In this document: positions 11,948-54,489 of the stretch, piece after piece
How the letters are laid out: each line of letters opens with the position of its first letter
Position numbering within the stretch: the stretch's first letter is position 1
Notes under the pieces: generated by a model
Database searches by the model: none
Seen by the model: the letters and a program-made list of their open reading frames with translations, nothing else
What the model was told of the DNA's origin: nothing
Made by a program: the position numbers and the translations under genes
IMG/VR virus record: IMGVR_UViG_3300045988_130116
Direction: 5' to 3' (one strand)
DNA length: 64,000 nt
Origin: a virus

Positions 11948-12731
11948 TTAATCGTTTATATCTACTGTATAAGAATACATAGCATTATATAAATTTTGAG
12001 GAATAGATTCTTTATAATAATCTGCTACTTCTTTAATATATTCTTCTTTAAATTTTTTATATACTTCAAATGCTTTTTTAGGAGTATCATAATAACCTAA
12101 ATGTACCCTTATTTGTTTATTTTCTTTAAAATCATAAGTGCTACAACTACTTGAGTATTTATTATATTTTTTCAAGTTTAACTCCTATTGGTAGTTTACC
12201 TCTATTTTTATTGCACTTAGTAAAAAGTGTGTTTATTCTTTGTGGTGCAAAAATACAAGTTTTCGGTGAATAAGTTTTATTATTCTTTATTAAAATATCT
12301 TTATCTAAATGCATACACTCATTTTTAATTTCATAATAGTTGTCATAATACCAATTAGCAAAATTTTGAAAATTATGCCATTCTTCACATACTTCACAAC
12401 CTTTGTAATATGTATGTTTTTGTTTAAGCCTTTCATTATAACATCTATTTAACATACTTCTCCAAGTTGTATAGCATCTAGTAAACTTGCCATTTATTTT
12501 ACTCTTATATTTACCTTCGCCTAAATATCCTATATTATATACGGTTGGTTCATAAGGGCATCTAATTTCCCCTTTTGAAAAATATTCATATTTTCTATGC
12601 TTTATCGTGTAATTATATTGAGGAAAATAAACATCTATATCTCGACAACTATTATATTTAACTATTATCATTTTACTTCCGAAGTTATTTAATTTTTCTT
12701 CGCCTGTTCTATTTAATTTATGCATAATCAA
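11948..12731 (-). pseudogene. AP2-domain homing-endonuclease-like gene split by a 1-nt frame change in an A6 run (about 12165..12170)
   Basis: The 12162..12731 ORF ends ..RGKLPIGVKLEKI*. The 11948..12175 ORF continues in the +1 frame as ..NKYSSS..IRVHLGYYDTPKKAFEVYKK (AP2-like). Removing one A from GAAAAAAT fuses the two. Confidence 0.55.
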
Positions 12732-39036: not shown

Positions 39037-39079
39037 TCCACATCACTCCTTTTAATATCTCATTTCTTACTATACTTAT

Positions 39080-39108
39080 ATTATATCATAAATTAATACT
39101 GTTGTCAA
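39080..39108 (-). promoter_or_regulatory. cassette promoter TTGACA-17-TATAAT
   Basis: Drives GATase-like gene 38026..39036. Confidence 0.75.
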
Positions 39109-39149
39109 GTGTTTTTTGATTTTTTTTAAAACTTTTTTATTTTTTTTTA

Positions 39150-39177
39150 TTGACTTATAAATATAATATAGTATAAT
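39150..39177 (+). promoter_or_regulatory. plus-strand promoter TTGACT-16-TATAAT preceded by T-tracts
   Basis: TTGACT 39150..39155, TATAAT 39172..39177. Divergent from 39080..39108 and convergent with 39411..39439. Confidence 0.5.
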
Positions 39178-39183
39178 AATATA

Positions 39184-39308
39184 TGTAGTAAATAACAAGT
39201 GTGCTTAATGTTTCACTTAAAGATAAAATTAATATTCCTTAAATTATATATTAAATTAATGTTACACTTGTTATTTATTTATTCTATTTATTATTGTTTA
39301 TTTTTTTT
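39184..39308 (+). ncRNA. candidate small RNA (promoter, long hairpin, T-run)
   Basis: 14-bp stem 39189..39202 / 39264..39277 (TAAATAACAAGTGT / ACACTTGTTATTTA), followed by a T-rich tail ending in T8 at 39301..39308. No ORF. Confidence 0.3.
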
Positions 39309-39321
39309 GCATTATTTTTAC

Positions 39322-39397
39322 ATAAAGTCGAAGGATTTTTTGAGTCCTCCCCTCTTTGTGCAAAATAAAGTCGAAGGATTTTTAGGGTCTTACCCCC
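39322..39397. repeat. tandem direct repeat (2 units of about 33 nt)
   Basis: ATAAAGTCGAAGGATTTTTTGAGTCCTCCCCTC at 39322..39353 and ATAAAGTCGAAGGATTTTTAGGGTCTTACCCCC at 39365..39397. Confidence 0.8.
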
Positions 39398-39410
39398 TAT
39401 TCATACTTAT

Positions 39411-39439
39411 ATTGTATCATAAATTAATAGTGTTGTCAA
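39411..39439 (-). promoter_or_regulatory. orphan cassette promoter TTGACA-17-TACAAT (no ORF downstream)
   Basis: Full cassette, but the leader runs into the tandem repeats at 39322..39397 and I found no SD/ORF. Confidence 0.6.
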
Positions 39440-39721
39440 GTGTTTTTTTATATATTCCTATGATTTTTTTATTTTCTATGGAATTGAAAAAATTTTTCTA
39501 TATGATTTTTTTATTCTTATATAGGAAAATATTTTTCTTTTTAATTGAACACTTGAACATATGTTCATATATTCAATTTTCCATATGAATATATATTCAT
39601 ATATTGTCAACCTTAATAAATAAAGTAAATTTTAAAAATACTTAATTTTATTAAAGTTCTGTATTCCATTGTAAAGAGTTATAAAAAAGAATTGATATAA
39701 TATATCATTAAGATGTTAACG

Positions 39722-39760
39722 CCTCTTAAATTGGCGTATAGAAGGTATTTTAGTTATATT
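39722..39760. repeat. 39-nt dispersed repeat, copy 1 (CCTCTTAAATTGGCGTATAGAAGGT...)
   Basis: 38/39 identical to 40025..40063; the core GGCGTATAGAAGGT is also at 40220..40233. Confidence 0.8.
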
Positions 39761-40024
39761 CTATATTATTAAATTAAAACATTGAATTGACTTTATTTTT
39801 TAAATTGACTAGAATTATTTGAATTGTTTATACAAACGTGAATTTTCTGACAATTCAAAATACTCTTATTTCTTCTATATATATTATAACATTTTTGACC
39901 TAAAAAGTCAAGGAAAAGTTTTTGACACTATTCGACAATATTATACAAAAAAACAACCGTTCTATTTTAGCGTGTAAAAGGCTTTAAAAAGTTTTTAATA
40001 CTAATATATAGCTAATAGCTAAAA

Positions 40025-40063
40025 CCTCTTAAATTGGCGTATAGAAGGTGTTTTAGTTATATT
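40025..40063. repeat. 39-nt dispersed repeat, copy 2
   Basis: CCTCTTAAATTGGCGTATAGAAGGTGTTTTAGTTATATT. Confidence 0.8.
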
Positions 40064-40210
40064 GGATAATTTAATATATTGTAAAATACGATATTTTATA
40101 TATGTATATTGTATACAAATATAGGTATATGCTAAAATATCCTTATATTTCAATTTTAAAGAGTTAGTATATATTAATCATATATTTATATTAAGATGTA
40201 TTTATAAGTG

Positions 40211-40233
40211 TCTTAAAAAGGCGTATAGAAGGT
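40211..40233. repeat. dispersed repeat, copy 3 (diverged)
   Basis: TCTTAAAAAGGCGTATAGAAGGT; shares upstream ATTAAGATGT with copy 1. Confidence 0.7.
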
Positions 40234-40297
40234 TATTATTTTAAGATTTTTAAAAATATTACTGTAATTTATTCAAATTATAAAAAGTGACCTAAAA

Positions 40298-40559
40298 TGA
40301 TAATCATTATCATTTATAATATTGTATAAAAACTTGTTTAATGTATACAAGTTGTTTCTTTATAAGAGTATTTAAAATTTAAATTATTTCCGAGTAGGCC
40401 GCTTTTTTCTAATTAATAATCATTCTCAATTAATAATTATTTTCATCAGGAAGGACCGCAGTCTAATTGAAAATTATTTTCAGTTGATAATTATTATCAT
40501 AAATTCTGATCATCTGAGGGTCCGCAGTGAGAATTGATATTAATTGAGAATGATTATCA
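40298..40559. repeat. Fur-box-like 7-1-7 palindrome cluster A
   Basis: TGATAATCATTATCA 40298..40312 (perfect), TAATAATCATTCTCA 40414..40428, TGAAAATTATTTTCA 40468..40482, TGATAATTATTATCA 40485..40499 (perfect), TGAGAATGATTATCA 40545..40559. Interleaved GC cores GGACCGCAGT 40453..40462 and GGTCCGCAGT 40519..40528. Confidence 0.8.
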
Positions 40560-40575
40560 CCTCTGGTTACTTCTG

Positions 40576-40607
40576 AAAAAAAAATACCTTTGGAAAAATC
40601 CAAAGGT
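40576..40607 (-). terminator. intrinsic terminator after 40626..41852
   Basis: ACCTTTGG-ATTTTT-CCAAAGGT then ATTTTTTTTT. Confidence 0.7.
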
Positions 40608-40625
40608 TTAAAGTAAGTTATTTAA

Positions 40626-41852
40626 TTAAAAAGTGTCATTTAAATAGTGAGATAGATATATATCTAAATTTTGATATTCTTCAAGGTTATTATCAATTAT
40701 TTCTCTAATCTTATATTTATTGTTAGTTTTATTAATATCATTAAATAATAGTAATTTAATTAACTCTATATTTGCAAATATATTTCTAAAAGATAAAGTC
40801 CCCTTAAAAAGTCTAAATTCTATTGTAGAGTAGTTATTAAAATTAATTATATGATATCTATCTCCCCACTTGTTTTCTAATGCTATATTTTCCAAGTTAC
40901 CTAAACTAGTGTCATAAAATGGAGACCATCTATTAAAACGACCTATATCCCTTTGACTATAGTCAAATATAAAGTCCTTGTTTAATTCCATAAATTGAAG
41001 AATATCTATCATTCTACTTTTTACAAAATTATTTTTAGTTATATGAATATGACCTCCACAAGAAGAATCTATATCAAAGTTAGCGCATTTTAAAAATCTA
41101 GTCATTTTTGGAATTACATCGTATGCAACATTAAAGCCTAACGGTTGACTTATAAACTCTATACCATTATTTAACGACCCATCCTCTTCTATATGGAAAT
41201 ATTTTTGCCAATTAAAATTATTATTGTCACAAATTTGTATAAAATCATTTATACATTCATTTATATTTGAGCGTGTTATTACCTCTAATTCAAGTCCTAA
41301 AAATACGCCTTCTTTACTCTCTCCAATAGGACTATATTCTCCATCCCATTCATGATAACTGTATACAAAGTCGTTGCAAGTCTCACAGTAGCAATCAATA
41401 CAATAAAACTCTCCATCCCCTTCATTATAATATAAGTCTTCTATATCGATAGCCTCTTCACAGTTGTAGCAATAATTCCACGCCTCACTCCTAGAAGAAT
41501 AACAATAAGTATTGCATTCAACCTCAACAAATTCATCGGTAGAGGCTTCTAATTCGTGATGGAAATCGCAATAATCAATATAATATCTTAAAGAAAAATC
41601 GTTAATACAGTCTCTACATCCGTCGAATATATTTATATAGATATTGTCTTCTAATACATGGATTTCTTCTATATCGTCTATTATTTCAACGTCGTTGATA
41701 TCGTCTTTATTATCTAATTCATTGATAGAGTCCATTATATTCTCCATATAAGGACAAGTATTACAAGAACAACTACCTTTTAAATTTTTCATAAATTCAA
41801 CGCTAAAATTATTATTTTCTAATACCTCAACTAATAAACTATTATTTAACAT
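40626..41852 (-). CDS. amidoligase (Amidoligase_2-like), third paralog, long Cys-rich N-terminus
   Basis: 408 aa; GVFLGLELEV...DGSLNNGIEFISQP...CGGHIHITK...INFNNYSTIEFRLFKGTL. Confidence 0.7.
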   Translation of the reverse strand: MLNNSLLVEVLENNNFSVEFMKNLKGSCSCNTCPYMENIMDSINELDNKDDINDVEIIDDIEEIHVLEDNIYINIFDGCRDCINDFSLRYYIDYCDFHHELEASTDEFVEVECNTYCYSSRSEAWNYCYNCEEAIDIEDLYYNEGDGEFYCIDCYCETCNDFVYSYHEWDGEYSPIGESKEGVFLGLELEVITRSNINECINDFIQICDNNNFNWQKYFHIEEDGSLNNGIEFISQPLGFNVAYDVIPKMTRFLKCANFDIDSSCGGHIHITKNNFVKSRMIDILQFMELNKDFIFDYSQRDIGRFNRWSPFYDTSLGNLENIALENKWGDRYHIINFNNYSTIEFRLFKGTLSFRNIFANIELIKLLLFNDINKTNNKYKIREIIDNNLEEYQNLDIYLSHYLNDTF

Positions 41853-41917
41853 ATAATTTTACCTCCTAATTATTTATTATAGTTAGGGAATTTTTAAAGG
41901 TATTCCCTAAAAACCTT
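41850..41917 (-). promoter_or_regulatory. duplicated 5' region with hairpin, copy 1 (upstream of 40626..41852)
   Basis: Minus strand AGGTTTTTAGGGAATACCTTTAAAAATTCCCTAACTATAATAAATAATTAGGAGGTAAAATTATATG; 8-9 bp stem at 41883..41910. Confidence 0.6.
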
Positions 41918-41925
41918 TTATAAAA

Positions 41926-42564
41926 TTATTGATTATTGTTTAAATAATCATTATATAATTTTTTCCAATAATTCCATATACAACAACAACAATTTGAAAA
42001 ATCATTATTTTTACATTCGCAATATTTTTTTGGAATTTCTATACCTTCTTTTTGGTATGCTCTAATTAAACAAGTCGATTCTTTCTCAAAGGCTTGATTA
42101 ACATAACTAGAAAAGAATCGGTCATTCCTTAAATATAGAGGGTCACAAATACAGTTTAGGTCATTTTTAAAAGTAGATATTTTTTCAATTTCTTTACTTA
42201 CAAATATTGAAAAATTCATTTTTTCACCATAACCACAAATGCAAGTATTTTCATTTATCCACAAAAATTTGTGAGGTAATACTTCATAACGATTATGTTT
42301 ATTACAATATTCCATAAAATACCATCCATTATATTCCATACAGTTTTTACATTCCATAAAAACATTTACTTGTTTTATATTTTCTTTATCGTCATACATA
42401 TAGCAATTTACTATTTTATTATTAGTGCTTTTATTTTCTAATAAATTGTTTAAAATATTACAGTTATTACACTTGCAAAAAGCCTCACTTTCAAGTTGTT
42501 TAAAGACTTGTATATCTAAATTTAAGCCTTCTAATAAACTTACTAATTCTTTATTGTTTAACAT
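41926..42564 (-). CDS. Cys-rich protein homologous to the N-terminal region of 40626..41852 (no amidoligase domain)
   Basis: 212 aa; MLNNKELVSLLEGLN..C.C..C versus MLNNSLLVEVLENNN..C.C..C; duplicated about 65-nt upstream region. Confidence 0.6.
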   Translation of the reverse strand: MLNNKELVSLLEGLNLDIQVFKQLESEAFCKCNNCNILNNLLENKSTNNKIVNCYMYDDKENIKQVNVFMECKNCMEYNGWYFMEYCNKHNRYEVLPHKFLWINENTCICGYGEKMNFSIFVSKEIEKISTFKNDLNCICDPLYLRNDRFFSSYVNQAFEKESTCLIRAYQKEGIEIPKKYCECKNNDFSNCCCCIWNYWKKLYNDYLNNNQ

Positions 42565-42627
42565 ATAATTTTACCTCCTAATTGTTTTATAGTTAGGGAA
42601 TTTATAAAGGTATTCCCTAAAAACCTA
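42562..42627 (-). promoter_or_regulatory. duplicated 5' region with hairpin, copy 2 (upstream of 41926..42564)
   Basis: About 90 percent identical to copy 1 by eye; stem at 42593..42620. Confidence 0.6.
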
Positions 42628-42647
42628 ATTTTAAAAATATTGTCAAC

Positions 42648-42824
42648 TTATAAATAATAAATTTCATTTAAAGTGTCTATTATATAAGATACATTTAATC
42701 CACTTTGAACGCCTACAAAGTCCGTAATATCCATTAATTTTAAACTAATAGGATTTTTAAAAGTTACTATTAAAGCTACTATTATGCAAATTGTTTTTAC
42801 TATTCTATTTATTTTTTTATTCAT
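42648..42824 (-). CDS. small membrane/secreted protein (58 aa)
   Basis: Own translation MNKKINRIVKTICIIVALIVTFKNPISLKLMDITDFVGVQSGLNVSYIIDTLNEIYYL; GGGAGGG SD. Confidence 0.5.
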   Translation of the reverse strand: MNKKINRIVKTICIIVALIVTFKNPISLKLMDITDFVGVQSGLNVSYIIDTLNEIYYL

Positions 42825-42840
42825 ATAAAGCCCTCCCTTT

Positions 42841-43197
42841 TTATTTTACTTTGCAAAAATCGTAAATTTTTTCTTGTCTTGTTCTATAATAGCAAGTTAA
42901 AATATTGCCACCAGTTAAACTTAAAACTACCATCAAAGTGGCTTGTTTACCTTCTATTATATCGTCTTTACGGTTACCGATGGTTAATACCTCCTCCATC
43001 GTACCCTTCTTTTTTTTGTTTTCCCTTATTTCATATAATAGGATTTTTCCATTTTGGGCTACGCTTCTAATGTATTCTTTATCTATAAAAACTGTATTTC
43101 TTTTTAATGCATGATAGGAAACATAAAAGCTTTTTTTTCTAGCGTTATCAAGTTTTATTTTATCTTTTTTATTTAAGTCTTTATATCTATACTTCAT
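42841..43197 (-). CDS. hypothetical protein
   Basis: 118-aa ORF; GGAGGGG SD. Confidence 0.55.
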   Translation of the reverse strand: MKYRYKDLNKKDKIKLDNARKKSFYVSYHALKRNTVFIDKEYIRSVAQNGKILLYEIRENKKKKGTMEEVLTIGNRKDDIIEGKQATLMVVLSLTGGNILTCYYRTRQEKIYDFCKVK

Positions 43198-43208
43198 TTT
43201 ATCCCCTC

Positions 43209-43574
43209 CTATTTAACAAATATACATCTTTTATAGACTGTACTTGGTCGCCAATTTCTACCATCCGATGTACAGTAAACAACTTTATGACTTCTTGAAA
43301 ATTCATATAAACTTTTTAAGGTAAACTCTTCATTAGTATTTTTAATTCTAACTCTAGCACCTATTGTAATTCTTGGGTCATGGTCAATAGTTAAACATTC
43401 ATATTCTTTTTTATCCATGAATTGATTTTCTACTTTAAATATTAATTCTATTTTGTTTTCTTCATTTATTAAGTTACTTATACACTTTCCAAAGTACATC
43501 CCTTTTTCTTCTAATTCATGAATTTGTTTTCTTATTTCTTTTTTATTTAATCCTATTAATTTTATATATTTCAT
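43209..43574 (-). CDS. hypothetical protein
   Basis: 121-aa ORF; AAGGAGGAAA SD. Confidence 0.55.
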   Translation of the reverse strand: MKYIKLIGLNKKEIRKQIHELEEKGMYFGKCISNLINEENKIELIFKVENQFMDKKEYECLTIDHDPRITIGARVRIKNTNEEFTLKSLYEFSRSHKVVYCTSDGRNWRPSTVYKRCIFVK

Positions 43575-44623
43575 TTTATTTCCTCCTTATTATTTATTTT
43601 ACTTATTCACTTTTATAAAATTATTGGTCACTAGAATTGTAACCGATATAATTAAGATTTTTAAAGAATGGATTTTTTAATATTATTGTCAACTCTTATT
43701 ATGTTATCTTATTATGTATTATTTAATTGTTAATATAATAGTAACACAAAAAAGTATAAAATACAACTTACAATTGATACAACTTTTTAAAAATGTTATT
43801 TACATATGATATTAAAATAAGATGGAAATTAATATTTGTATATGAAAAATATCCAAAAACTAGCACGTTTTTTTGTTAGGCAATTTATAAAAAAATTATT
43901 TACAAGTGATAAATAAAAATCAAATAAATTTTATCAAATAGTAAGTATTTTTTTATAATGCTTTACAAAAATTTACCATGATTTCTGAAAAATTTATATT
44001 TTTAAAATATATTGTTTATCAAAAATCACTTGTTAGTTTACAAGTGTTTAGATTTTTTACTCTATTTTTATATTTGTAAATTAAAAATAATAAAAATTTT
44101 TACATTATAATTATTATAGTTATTTTTAGAAAAATATAAAAAAAAATTATTTTATTTGTAAGTGTTTTATAGTATAATATTGAATAATTGTAAATTATAC
44201 CTATCTTTATATATATAAATAAAAAGATGTTAGAATAAAGATAGTTAAAAAGGTCATGATTTTATTAATTATCGTATTTCATTAGCTCAAATGTATAACG
44301 TTATAAGGCTTTTGGTGTGCTATCGTTCTGAATAACACGAACTATTATTTGTTATAATTCGGAAATGTATGTATCAAGGTAATTTACGACTTTATTCAAC
44401 ACTAATCGACGCTTCTGTACGCCCTTGTGAGGCGTTCTAAAAAGTTGCCTTTATATTCTATCGTACGATTTTAAAAGTACATTTAACCTTATGAACGCCT
44501 ATATAAGAATAGGCAAGAATAAATTAACAAGTAACAACAAGAATATGTTGCAAGTTGTTAATTATAACTTGCAATTATTATACAATTTATTTCATAGTTA
44601 GATAGTAGGAAATCAGGAAGAAT

Positions 44624-44930
44624 GTAAATGATAATGGCTCTCAACTGCGGTCCATGAATAGTTGAGAATGATTATCGCCACAGACTGCGGTCCATGAATA
44701 AGCGTAAATGAAATCCATTATCAACTGATATTGTATTCTCAATTGAGAATGATTATCGAATGATTCAAAGTACCAACTTACAATTGTATACCACTATACA
44801 AGTTTTTGGAATTACTATAATTCCTATTAAAATAGTATGATATTATCATAATGATAATGATTAATGTATACAATGTAAATGATAATCGTTATCGACTGCG
44901 GTCCATGAGTAGGTGAGAATGGTTATCGAA
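44624..44930. repeat. composite repeat cluster B: [TGATAAT-type box][ACTGCGGTCCATGArTA][TGAGAATGrTTATCG]
   Basis: Boxes at 44629..44643, 44663..44677, 44709..44723, 44744..44758, 44852..44866, 44880..44894 and 44914..44928. ACTGCGGTCCATGA cores at 44644..44660, 44684..44700 and 44895..44911. Confidence 0.8.
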
Positions 44931-45180
44931 TGGTAAAAAGTAACAACTTGTATACAAAATACAATATGTTTATATTTGTTTTTGTATACACTACAATTCA
45001 TAGTGGAATAGCAGAGAATAGAATAAGTATTAATTGATAATGTTTCTTAAATAAGTTAATGTTTTAATTAATAATAATAATAGAATAATAATAATATTAT
45101 TTTGATAATCAAAATATTTGATAATCATAACATTATCAATATGATAACTAAATTATACAATATACATAATTGCCAACTTG

Positions 45181-45460
45181 TTTTATTAATACAATATGTT
45201 TATATATACTATTGTATACATTAATATTATAGTATGTTATATTGTCTTATATATATTATAACGTACTGTACTATTGTATTGTATAGTATAGTATACGATA
45301 TATTATGTATATATGTTATACTATTATGTATTATATTTGTATATGTATTATTATATACGTATTGCATATGTATATATAGTATGTATTGATGTATTATATA
45401 TGATGTATTATTGTATTGCATTGTTATATATAGTATGTATTATATAGGTATATATGTTAT
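45181..45460. repeat. GTATA/TATAC-rich low-complexity tract
   Basis: About 280 nt built almost only of T, A and GTAT/ATAC words. The ORF called here is a compositional artefact. Confidence 0.7.
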
Positions 45461-45496
45461 ACCAATGCATTGGTCACTTGATAGGTATAGCAAAGG

Positions 45497-45906
45497 TGAG
45501 AACGATTATCGATTGATAGCCTTGCATTTTTTGGTTAACCATTTTTGTATTTTGGGTTAACGTATTTTTTTATTGGAATGTATGAATAATTGAATATGTT
45601 TTTATATGAATATGTATTCATGTATTTGGGGATTTTTGGGTTGAATAAGTTCCTTCATTTTTACACGACAAAAAAATTTTTTCCTTCATTGACTAATCAT
45701 TCGATAATCATTCTCACCCTCATTTAATTAAGCTTCTTATATGAATTTGATAATCATAATCAACTACAATTTTTTTCTTTATATATCAAATATTTTTCCA
45801 TTCAAATATTTTGATTATCAAAGTATTTAATGTCGGATAATAGTATTGTTATAGGTCATTAATAGGGGGGATGTTTCATAATACTTGATAATGATAATCA
45901 TTCTGC
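45497..45906. repeat. Fur-box-like cluster C
   Basis: TGAGAACGATTATCG 45497..45511; CGATAATCATTCTCA 45702..45716 (inverted orientation); TGATAATCATAATCA 45748..45762; GATAATGATAATCATTCTG 45887..45905 (17/19 to the classical Fur box), followed by CTGCGGCCCC. Confidence 0.75.
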
Positions 45907-45947
45907 GGCCCCTAGCTACTACACTCAAGCACCATTTTTTCTCAAAG

Positions 45948-46056
45948 CACCATTTTTCACACCATTTTCCCATTATCTCCAATCAATCCTTCCACCTCCA
46001 CAACACCCCAAATATCCCTTTTTCAACCCTTCATATCTCATTAAAAACAATTAATT
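45948..46056 (+). other. 109-nt G-free, C-rich tract with 3x CACCATTTT
   Basis: Counted by eye: no G between 45948 and 46056. Contains GCACCATTTTTT, GCACCATTTTT, ACACCATTTT and CCACCTCCAC. Confidence 0.7.
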
Positions 46057-46344
46057 GTATTAAACGAAAGAATAACAACAGTAATTATATATAGTTCCCA
46101 AATATAGGTAAATACAATAAAACAACCTTTTACATATACATAACATTGTATACAATAAAAGATTAAAGTCTCAATAAACACAACAAAAATGATATTAAAG
46201 GTAGGGGAGGGGTGGTTTGCATACTTTTTCTAAAGTTGAATAATAATGACCTTCTGTGTGCCATTTTAAGAAGATAAAATCAATAAGTTAAGTATTTGTA
46301 TTAAGAGTATTTTTTAGGTATATTAGAGAGGAAATATAAAAGGG

Positions 46345-46380
46345 CAAAAAAAAAGAGGAAAACATTTTCAGTTCTCCTCT
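46345..46380 (-). terminator. intrinsic terminator ending the 51.9->46.4 kb leftward block
   Basis: AGAGGAGAA-CTGAAAATG-TTTTCCTCT then TTTTTTTTGCCC. Confidence 0.65.
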
Positions 46381-46387
46381 GGAATAT

Positions 46388-46612
46388 TTACCAATTATCT
46401 TGACCACATCTAATATAACAGTAATGTGAATTATCACACATATATATTCTTTCTTTTTTATTACGAGACTTATATCTCCAAGGTTTCCCACATTGAGGGC
46501 ACATACCATGATTCCATCTTCTTTTCTCAAGTTTACTAAGTATGAGATATAATACTATAAGAAGGATTATCCATACTATAATTACTTGAGGTAGTATATT
46601 TGCTAATGTCAT
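46388..46612 (-). CDS. membrane-anchored Cys/His-rich small protein (tandem paralog)
   Basis: 74 aa; TM then RRWNHGMCPQCGKPWRY...C.N.HYC. Confidence 0.55.
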   Translation of the reverse strand: MTLANILPQVIIVWIILLIVLYLILSKLEKRRWNHGMCPQCGKPWRYKSRNKKERIYMCDNSHYCYIRCGQDNW

Positions 46613-46848
46613 TATTTTCTCCCATCTACATTATAATAAATTTCACACCAATGACCATGATTACAGGTATAAACTCTTTCTCCTCTTTTATTTTCATATA
46701 CATATCTCCAAGGTTCATTATGATAACTACACATACCATTGTTCCATATTTTCTTATCCTCATATCTTCTTATTAAAGAGTCTATTATGTTTACAATTAT
46801 AACTCCAATTAAAGTTCCACCCATTGTACATAATACTGTTTCTATCAT
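46612..46848 (-). CDS. membrane-anchored Cys/His-rich small protein (tandem paralog)
   Basis: 78 aa; TM then KIWNNGMCSYHNEPWRY...CNHGHWC. Confidence 0.55.
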   Translation of the reverse strand: MIETVLCTMGGTLIGVIIVNIIDSLIRRYEDKKIWNNGMCSYHNEPWRYVYENKRGERVYTCNHGHWCEIYYNVDGRK

Positions 46849-51926: not shown

Positions 51927-52036
51927 CAAATAAAGACCCTTACTGCCACCAAATAAAGACCTCTATTTTTTGGCTTTTCAAAATTCCAAATAAAGACCTC
52001 TTACAAGAGAAAATAAAGACCTCTACAAGAGAAAAT
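51927..52036. repeat. four direct repeats AAATAAAGACCYCT in the divergent control region
   Basis: Cores start at 51928, 51951, 51988 and 52011 (spacing 23, 37, 23). The last two are followed by (T)ACAAGAGA. Confidence 0.8.
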
Positions 52037-52519
52037 ACTGGTTCAGTAATGTATGTATATTATATATTTAATATTAAATAATAATATATAAATATATTAT
52101 TATTTTTGCGAAGCTATCGCTCCGGTACATCTTTTTCTTGGTATTTTTTTCTTTTAATTTAATCCTTATAGTTTAAACGAGATTAATTCTTAACTTGTCG
52201 CATAGCATACGCAAACACTATTTTTAAAATTTTTATTTTTTTTCTTTTTTTTTGAATAAAGAGTAAAATTCATGGTATATTAAGAGTATAAGAACAACTG
52301 AAAGAATCAATTATTTAATATCTTATGGTGTCTTCTTATAGAGCAAACAGTGTCAATTATTTTTCCGTTATATTTGGTACATAGACGAAAATAAAAAAAT
52401 ATTTTTAAAAAAAATGAATATATTTCTTAAAACTGGATATAATATTATTAGGGAGTTAAAAAACTTAATATCTGAGTTGACAACATTCTGATAATTACAA
52501 TCAGAAAGTAGGAAAGATA

Positions 52520-54224: not shown

Positions 54225-54291
54225 GGATATATAGTTTAACAGGCAAAATACTTACCGGAAAAGAGTTATAGGTTCGAGTCCTATTATATCC
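54225..54291 (+). ncRNA. tRNA-like element 1 (non-canonical; anticodon arm cannot be folded canonically)
   Basis: Hand fold: 7-bp acceptor GGATATA/TATATCC, T arm ATAGG-TTCGAGT-CCTAT, D arm GTTT-AACAGGCA-AAAT. Only 67 nt, and the central 34 nt is too short for a standard anticodon arm plus variable loop. Confidence 0.5.
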
Positions 54292-54489
54292 TCATGATAT
54301 AACCCCCTTTCAATTATATTATTATACTTAAAGACACATACAGCAATTTTTAAATACTTTATTTTATAAAAAACAATTTATATTAACTTAAATAGAATTT
54401 CATAAATACCTCCTTTGATTTAATGATATGTAAGAATGTGTCTTGTAATACCTCCTATAGGACTACTGAACGGGAAGTAGTCCTAATAT

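Follow-up and report, generated by a model that had tools for sequence, protein, structure and literature searches.

Canonical Fur operators, written either as a 19-bp box (GATAATGATAATCATTATC) or as the B. subtilis 7-1-7 palindrome (TGATAATNATTATCA), are found as one to three sites at one promoter, and TGA, AA, TT and TCA are the base-contacted positions in Fur-DNA structures. The aerobactin operator is known as a long Fur operator with multiple sites. Furthermore, clusters of Fur sites were described in E. coli (PMC2189734). Here we describe a 64,000-nucleotide (nt) stretch of viral DNA (IMG/VR record IMGVR_UViG_3300045988_130116; hereafter the window, meaning the whole stretch that was analysed) in which about 17 near-consensus 7-1-7 boxes are placed at the margins of two conserved control regions without genes, between which a small accessory gene cassette is enclosed. 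We propose that the three clusters formed by these boxes are operator arrays for a host metalloregulator of the Fur family, most likely Fur itself, which would gate transcription and possibly titrate the regulator, a reading to which we give a probability of about one half.

Some phages embed sites for global regulators of the host: phi29 carries Spo0A boxes and parS sites, and GIL01 and CTXphi carry LexA boxes. Those phages, and possibly the one described here, read the physiological state of the cell through one of its transcription factors; the regulator in our case is predicted to be of the Fur type, and the sites are far more numerous. Fur-regulated phage cargo is exemplified by stx1. Likewise, sitABCD was described as Fur-regulated cargo on lambdoid coliphages (PMC6969025), and a C. 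difficile prophage operon was reported with a Fur site (PMC6311696). Such cargo also wires a phage-borne sequence into the host Fur regulon, but by means of a single box before an iron or virulence gene, rather than by arrays in non-coding DNA. In the searchable literature Fur boxes on phages are described only as single operators before cargo genes, and neither multi-site Fur arrays in non-coding phage DNA nor a natural phage Fur sink was found there.

Three clusters of Fur-box-like sites

The sites were located within positions 40298-45906 of the window. Gene-free DNA was taken as 39037-40625 plus 43575-46388 (4.4 kb), and proteins are given with their length in amino acids (aa). The layout was as follows.

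40298-40559: cluster A, six 15-bp 7-1-7 sites (40298-40312, perfect; 40414-40428; 40431-40445; 40468-40482; 40485-40499, perfect; 40545-40559), with two tandem pairs whose starts are spaced 17 bp apart
44629-45049: cluster B, inverted relative to cluster A, with interleaved CTGCGGTCCATGA boxes and a 40-bp period (sites 44629-44643, 44663-44677, 44709-44723, 44744-44758, 44880-44894, 44914-44928, 45035-45049)
45497-45906: cluster C (sites 45497-45511, 45702-45716, 45748-45762 and the double site 45886-45900 / 45892-45906)
39037-40625, minus strand: gene-free block 1, with cluster A, three copies of ACCTTCTATACGCC and strong sigma-70-type promoters that precede no open reading frame (ORF)
43575-46353, minus strand: gene-free block 2, which holds clusters B and C
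40626-43574, minus strand: accessory cassette encoding a 121-aa and a 118-aa protein, a 58-aa membrane protein, a 212-aa Cys-rich protein and a 408-aa amidoligase

Between 1 and 51.9 kb every gene runs along the minus strand. The original prediction had described the whole region as gene-free, which is true of 39037-40625 and 43575-46353 but not of the DNA between clusters A and B, where the minus-strand cassette (counted as four genes) is enclosed by the two clusters. Cluster A lies directly downstream, on the minus strand, of the amidoligase terminator (40607-40586). Cluster C lies about 450 nt downstream on the same strand of the terminator hairpin 46380-46354, which belongs to upstream small genes and adjoins the upper edge of block 2, and it is separated from that hairpin by a C-rich box and a G-rich tract. 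Followed along the minus strand from 46353, block 2 comprises a G-rich, C-free tract (46040-45925), cluster C, a 260-bp TA-rich stretch of low complexity (45460-45200), cluster B, in which the repeat families D1, D10, I4 and I7 fall, and a block of about 350 nt (44600-44240).

Expected counts were derived from Markov models of orders 1-3 and from dinucleotide shuffles. Two perfect copies of TGATAATNATTATCA are present at 40298-40312 and 40485-40499, exactly where they had been predicted. Allowing one mismatch to this sequence, five sites were found in the window against 0.19 expected (five against 0.03 in gene-free DNA), and allowing two mismatches to the strict Fur consensus there were 13, all but one of them inside 40298-45906. 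The exact form TGANAATNATTNTCA occurred four times (0.01 expected), and the 13-mer GAGAATGATTATC, thought at first to recur about eight times, was counted in nine copies with at most one mismatch (0.32 expected), every copy within the three clusters. When the looser 7-1-7 palindrome TGAnAAnnnTTnTCA was scored with at most one mismatch, the 4.4 kb of gene-free DNA held 18 sites against 0.85 expected, and the remaining 59.6 kb of the window held 13, which is the background rate. These shuffle and Markov controls rule out chance or AT-richness as the source of the sites, in agreement with the earlier argument that AT-richness does not suffice. The earlier figure of at least 16 sites stands only if mismatches are allowed, with 17 sites of TGANAANNNTTNTCA (at most one mismatch) in 40298-45906; as an exact form only the four copies of TGANAATNATTNTCA remain. 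One more TGANAANNNTTNTCA site, at 39485, is probably a chance occurrence. The classical-box core ATGATAATCATTATC is also present, at 40297-40311, one base away from the start first assigned to it, and the 17 of 19 identities reported between 45887-45905 (GATAATGATAATCATTCTG) and the classical 19-mer Fur box were found to be correct.

The positions TGA, AA, TT and TCA never vary among the sites, and the symmetrised profile reads aatTGA[T>G>A]AA[T>c]n[A>g]TT[A>C>T]TCAatt. Tandem pairs are frequent, with starts 17 bp apart (a 15-bp site and a 2-bp spacer), and a single classical overlapping double site, with a 6-bp offset, is found at 45886/45892. The locus resembles canonical Fur operators in its two perfect sites, in the 12 sites within two mismatches and in the offset double site, and the dyad symmetry implies a dimeric binder. 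It differs from them in that about 17 sites are spread over 5.6 kb with no iron gene, in the spacing of 17 bp from centre to centre, and in position 4, which is often G or A.

The motif was scored at those positions by which the three Fur paralogues of B. subtilis are told apart, with at most two mismatches in gene-free DNA. The Fur consensus gave 12 matches against 0.3 expected, PerR gave 5 against 1.8, and Zur gave 0 against 0.02. The Fur consensus of C. difficile, TGATAATVAWHWTCA (PMC6311696), gave 20 matches against 2.8 expected. By these consensus counts the sites fit Fur rather than PerR or Zur, as had been proposed. A Fur homologue is not encoded within the 64-kb window.

The phage is very common in human-gut metagenomes. 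Over 20,366 nt the window showed 100% identity to ERZ28572898 scaffold_39, a contig of 145,488 bp from the human gut, the phage recurs at 94-97% identity as permuted contigs of about 145 kb in many human-gut cohorts, and a 336-aa neighbour protein was indexed in 554 assembly blocks. The terminase protein TerL shows 53% identity to that of the C. difficile phages phiCD211 / phiCDIF1296T and about 35% to those of SPbeta-like phages, and the gene order of a sigma-like gene, HU, tRNAs and terminase is common to the window and phiCD211. Also encoded in the window are three sigma-70-type factors, a YyaC-like DUF1256 protein, ThyX, RNase H, ERF, a tyrosine recombinase, and a PriCT_1 plus winged-helix protein, with weak Phage_rep_O and DnaD_N matches. 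On sequence grounds we class the phage as SPbeta/phiCD211-like. Its host is probably a low-GC (guanine plus cytosine), spore-forming Firmicute, because of the TerL identity to phiCD211, the phiCD211-like gene order and the YyaC-like DUF1256 protein. Neither megablast nor blastn gave a match to the phage DNA in the INPHARED phage collection.

The arrays were found at matching places in dozens of the 94-97% identical gut contigs of about 145 kb, and in the first relatives of this size to be retrieved, ten out of ten carried the sites at the same places. Variation within this population was measured on 17 and 9 distinct sequences of the two gene-free blocks. Variable columns amounted to 7.8% of the specified motif positions (14/180), 21% of the degenerate positions (19/90) and 11% of the other non-coding positions (462/4144). 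Changes within the sites were mostly toggles at position 4/12 (T/G, A/C) and position 7 (T/C), and the perfect site 40298-40312 was unchanged in 17 distinct genomes despite varying flanks. Judged from these alignments, the motif-defining positions are under selective constraint. Whole pieces of the arrays are also gained or lost, as a 122-bp module at 40382/40383 in cluster A (compared in L001 and L230-L255, our labels for individual sequences) is present or absent among genomes that are 95-97% identical. This module contains CCTACTCGG, a AACAACTTGTATACA hairpin and two further sites; other module deletions were seen in L246 and L249, and many assemblies break inside the arrays.

The same array was sought in more distant relatives and was present in two diverged lineages, namely L243, of about 85% nucleotide identity, and L240/L241, 143-kb contigs whose amidoligase has 53% aa identity. 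There were 16 sites in L243 against 0.7 expected and 15 in L240 against 0.8. Both L240 and L243 keep the two gene-free blocks and the order of the elements inside them, and the array DNA and its flanks no longer align; the block of cluster C does align with L240, in which its first site is retained.

The same motif in other viruses and in cells

IMG/VR was queried with the tandem pair TGANAANNNTTNTCA-NN-TGANAANNNTTNTCA, and two composition-matched palindromes in the same geometry served as controls. The pair was found in 34 stretches with a GC content of 26-41%, and these formed 12 sequence clusters that share no nucleotide-level relationship. Each control palindrome was found in one stretch, which makes it about 12-fold rarer by cluster and 34-fold rarer by stretch. 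Searches with single motifs (the 15-mer and the GC-box; TGAGAATGATTATCG, GACTGCGGTCCATGA) returned scattered single matches only.

In phi29-like podophages of 16-17.7 kb the pair stands beside the gp16 packaging ATPase gene, about 250 nt from the contig end. A 34-kb viral contig carries 21 sites, 11 of them in an array with a period of 17-18 bp, and a family of large low-GC contigs (54-164 kb, several of about 104-164 kb) carries three to five tandem 17-bp units, with exact copies in L281. Except for one RNase H, the proteins of these other viral loci had no relative in the window. As to the phi29-like phages, positions 1-300 of L272 and 16 related IMG/VR contigs of 16-17.7 kb represent gut podophages with the tandem pair, and in L272 the pair is flanked by the LexA (Cheo)-like boxes CAGAACACCTGTTCG and CGAACATTCGTTCTG. 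Another contig, L279 (positions 1-700), encodes a T7-type terminase, and downstream of this gene lie six Fur-like sites, four DnaA boxes (TGTGGATAA) and three 33-nt direct repeats rich in ACATATATAC.

Among metagenome contigs at least 120 matches to the tandem pair were obtained, and 30 flanking proteins were examined. On the cellular 228-kb contig L328, about nine tandem 17-bp units (TGATAATGATTCTCAAA) at 12060-12225 lie upstream of a gene of the FUR family, which is followed by a katG-like peroxidase gene, with a divergent OsmC gene on the other side of the array. In L357 the pair was found between a heavy-metal P-type ATPase gene and feoB, and in L335 it was found upstream of a ferritin gene. 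Given its surroundings, the L328 array can be read as an unusually long natural operator of the Fur family. The motif in its 17-bp geometry is a genuine Fur-family operator architecture in cells, because pairs and arrays stand at cellular FUR-family, feoB and ferritin loci. In clustered cellular operators adjacent boxes allow several dimers to bind, and the window shares this arrangement, down to the 17-bp unit of L328. The cellular clusters nevertheless serve a single divergent promoter region with iron or oxidative-stress genes, whereas the phage has three arrays and no such genes. Since the motif recurs in 11 further viral clusters far above the controls, as well as at cellular Fur-family loci, a conserved host protein is favoured as the binder over a protein specific to one phage lineage.

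An abundant gut phage and at least 11 other unrelated viral clusters carry multi-site arrays of the Fur type in non-coding DNA without an iron gene. The phi29-like gut phages that carry the motif would be a more tractable system. The approach, in which a tandem-site search is combined with matched control palindromes and cellular contexts, may help to separate host-factor from phage-factor repeat arrays elsewhere.

Proposed function and competing explanations

The elements that bear on function are given below.

44851-44879, minus strand: promoter-like element (TTTACA, 17 nt, TATCAT; a consensus match only), whose -35 abuts site 44880-44894
40453-40461 and 40519-40527, minus strand: co-motif CTGCGG(T/A)CC (CTGCGGTCC) in cluster A
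44645-44653, 44685-44693, 44896-44904 and 45903-45911, plus strand: co-motif CTGCGG(T/A)CC

We infer that Fur binds at the arrays and that the consequences would be the following. When metal is replete, the arrays would be occupied by Fur dimers, which would then repress the promoter-like elements abutting the boxes (at least one, TTTACA-17-TATCAT) and would be roadblocks for transcripts that run on past the upstream terminators. In that case the cassette and the non-coding transcripts would be expressed according to iron status. Repression and roadblock are proposed because the arrays follow terminators, because three cluster-B sites (44880, 44629 and 44709) are directly followed by TTTAC on the minus strand, one of them with a -10-like hexamer at the right distance, and because the gene-free blocks hold promoters. 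Once phage DNA replicates, about 17 sites per genome copy might draw Fur off the host regulon. Cloned Fur boxes derepress the Fur regulon in FURTA, and the datA locus titrates DnaA. Both have in common with our proposal that the concentration of free regulator can fall when a replicating element carries numerous sites of high affinity; FURTA, however, is a laboratory tool and not a natural phage element. Should host Fur bind, phages would couple their own programme to iron, a key variable of the gut, and the host iron regulon might be manipulated by titration. The wider idea, that Fur-box arrays are a recurrent, previously unrecognised phage device that gates the phage programme on host iron and, during genome replication, is also a Fur sink derepressing host iron uptake to the advantage of the phage, we regard as improbable; if true, multi-site Fur operators would be a feature of the non-coding DNA of phages as unrelated as SPbeta-like, phi29-like, T7-like and other ones.

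Several observations weigh against host Fur as the regulator. As had been noted at the outset, iron-related genes are lacking, and no Pfam family of iron or metal homeostasis was found in the window; the neighbours of the arrays are the amidoligase, small proteins without an assigned function and genes of the ArdC/SprT type. The spacing is dominated by 17 bp, unlike the classical 6-bp overlap. At half-site position 4, G or A frequently replaces T, which departs from the TAAT core that is reportedly common to the Fur, PerR and Zur boxes of Firmicutes. In L240 the half-site is TGA(A/G)AA(C/T), which has lost the T preference at position 4 and is less Firmicute-like. The conserved boxes CTGCGGTCC, TTGTATACAA and CCTACTCGG are interleaved with the sites and are not explained by Fur. 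For CTGCGGTCC the window gave seven matches against 0.66 expected, six of the seven inside the arrays, and this box is poorly kept in L240; TTGTATACAA palindromes are enriched among the arrays, and CCTACTCGG occurs there too. Most sites do not look like classical promoter operators, because a -35-like hexamer abuts only 3 of 18, although promoters of the phage sigma factors would not be recognisable. The regulator of L328, by its fur-katG-OsmC neighbourhood, may sense peroxide rather than iron. The complete genome of phiCD211 (131.7 kb), which is the nearest relative in culture, has dispersed sites at background level and no array, and this phage was set aside as a model for that reason. Finally, a related 25.7-kb contig (L245, CALEJY010000329.1), which encodes a 336-aa protein 80% identical to that of the window and ends within the region equivalent to cluster A, was binned in a 'Candidatus Melainabacteria' metagenome-assembled genome; this is weak evidence, either a lead to the host or a misbinning. 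A Melainabacteria host was considered together with a match to the FurA consensus of the cyanobacterium Anabaena, AAATAAATTCTCAATAAAT, which contains ATTCTCAAT (PMC4005646), and was rejected, as it concerns a single binned contig and the affinities of the phage are to Firmicutes. A neighbouring deoxyribosyltransferase gene was also tried as an anchor and abandoned, since the gene is widespread and its other loci have no arrays.

Among the alternatives, the one that survives best is that the sites are operators or recognition sites of a dimeric DNA-binding protein encoded by the phage, for example a master regulator of early or accessory transcription, and that in a genome so rich in AT they resemble Fur boxes through coincidence or mimicry. 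Among the phiCD211-like phages only this lineage has the arrays, other lineage-specific boxes are interleaved with them, and most sites stand away from recognisable sigma-70 promoters. The nearby genes encode mostly small unassigned proteins, several proteins of the window have a helix-turn-helix (HTH) or winged HTH fold, and the drift at position 4 (T in the window; A, G and T about equal in L240) is of a kind that a co-evolving protein could cause. Against such a protein, the motif and its 17-bp geometry recur in 11 other viral clusters and, in cells, beside fur, feoB and ferritin genes, the control palindromes are rarer, and RNase H is the sole protein common to those phage loci and the window. 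A Fur homologue is absent from the 64 kb of the window, and any canonical host Fur would bind sites so near to its consensus, whatever else does. We hold a phage-encoded binder to be rather unlikely.

Plasmid-like prophage maintenance was also considered, with the arrays as centromere repeats to which a partition adaptor would bind, or as the iterons of an origin made up of cluster C, an AT-rich unwinding stretch and cluster B. Phages phiCD211 / phiCDIF1296T are maintained as plasmid-like prophages, and they carry a gene annotated 'partition protein'. The omega-protein heptad arrays of pSM19035 and the palindromic O iterons of lambda likewise consist of short repeats in several clusters, tandem and inverted, next to an AT-rich stretch, much as the three clusters with tandem 17-bp units adjoin the 260-bp TA-rich stretch between clusters B and C. 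The PriCT_1 plus winged-helix protein, with the weak Phage_rep_O/DnaD_N matches, might be an initiator, and in the T7-like L279 the sites stand beside four DnaA boxes. However, unlike the repeats of pSM19035 and lambda, the arrays have no cognate partition or initiator gene beside them; the candidate initiator gene is 13-18 kb distant, and no ParA/ParB family was found in the 64 kb of the window (of 145,488 bp). The window shows no enrichment of DnaA boxes, and its gene-free blocks have none. A better and more conventional origin candidate exists at 51928-52105, a divergent intergenic region with four direct repeats of AAATAAAGACCTCT ahead of a TA-rich stretch, where gene orientation and GC skew flip. 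Furthermore, phiCD211 has no arrays, the same pairs are carried by phi29-like and T7-like phages, for which iterons and centromeres are both dispensable, and cellular promoters of Fur-regulon genes have the motif as well. A role in maintenance or replication is accordingly quite improbable.

That the arrays mark terminal-repeat boundaries or a packaging recognition region is very improbable. Several fragmented assemblies do break at about 38346, 40034, 40443, 40749, 45437 and 46352, and in phi29-like phages the pair is found beside the gp16 ATPase at about 250 nt from a contig end, as it is found beside the T7-type terminase in L279. Repeat arrays are expected to break contigs anyway, however, the complete contigs of about 145 kb are permuted and contain the region internally, and about 14 kb separates it from the terminase genes. 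The contig-length distributions are also alike whether the gene lies within the putative repeat (57% of blocks <5 kb) or beyond it (59%), on which ground a terminal repeat was rejected.

Other elements around the arrays

Besides the clusters, the gene-free blocks contain elements that could be non-coding RNAs, namely their promoters and the block of about 350 nt. The promoters of block 1 and examples of the repeats described below are as follows.

39911-39883 and 39439-39411, minus strand: ORF-less sigma-70-type promoters, 11/12 match, TG-extended
39117-39062, 37373-37301, 36045-35973, 34321-34267, 30044-29979, 25443-25364, 21839-21768 and 8720-8659, minus strand: intergenic repeats

The two ORF-less promoters may drive phage small RNAs, to judge from their sequence; the one at 39439-39411 is followed by a GGGGGT...ACCC hairpin, of which L240 has an altered form (GGGGGGTACACCCC). 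The block of about 350 nt (44240-44600, minus strand) is conserved, with its counterpart at 8651-8960 of L240. It holds a perfect hairpin (TTGCAAGTT / AACTTGCAA) and three phased direct repeats GTCGA(A/T)TAG, which in L240 are three perfect copies of GGTCGAATAG. The stem of a second hairpin differs in sequence between L240 and the window, a comparison of few sequences, and RNAalifold on four sequences of the block gave almost no covariation. No Rfam family was found in the gene-free DNA, this block included, at E-values up to 1. At 45925-46040 (minus strand) the G-rich, C-free tract of about 115 nt contains three repeats of the (G)AAAAATGGTG(T/C) type and is preceded by a C-rich box, CCACCCCTCCCCTACC, at 46200-46230 (minus strand); both are kept in L240.

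A perfect 18-bp palindrome, TATGAATATATATTCATA, at 39584-39601 fits the ARG-box consensus TNTGAATWWWWATTCANW, and similar ones were seen in L240; enrichment of ARG boxes was not significant, with 25 against 22.8 expected at two mismatches or fewer. Rfam also reported a third tRNA at 54225-54292 (49 bits), which was absent from the ARAGORN output.

Repeats of about 70-100 nt are found between most minus-strand genes at 2000-39200 of the window. They carry near-perfect sigma-70 promoters (TTGACA, 17 nt, TG-extended TATAAT; for instance 39108-39080), and we take them to be reminiscent of the SPbeta repeated elements. The cassette enclosed by clusters A and B differs in gene content among relatives, and its 212-aa protein had no relatives in IMG/VR. 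Just upstream of block 2, at 46388-46848 (minus strand), two neighbouring small genes are paralogous (74 and 78 aa), and their products share a W-N-x-G-M-C...PWRY motif with Cys/His pairs.

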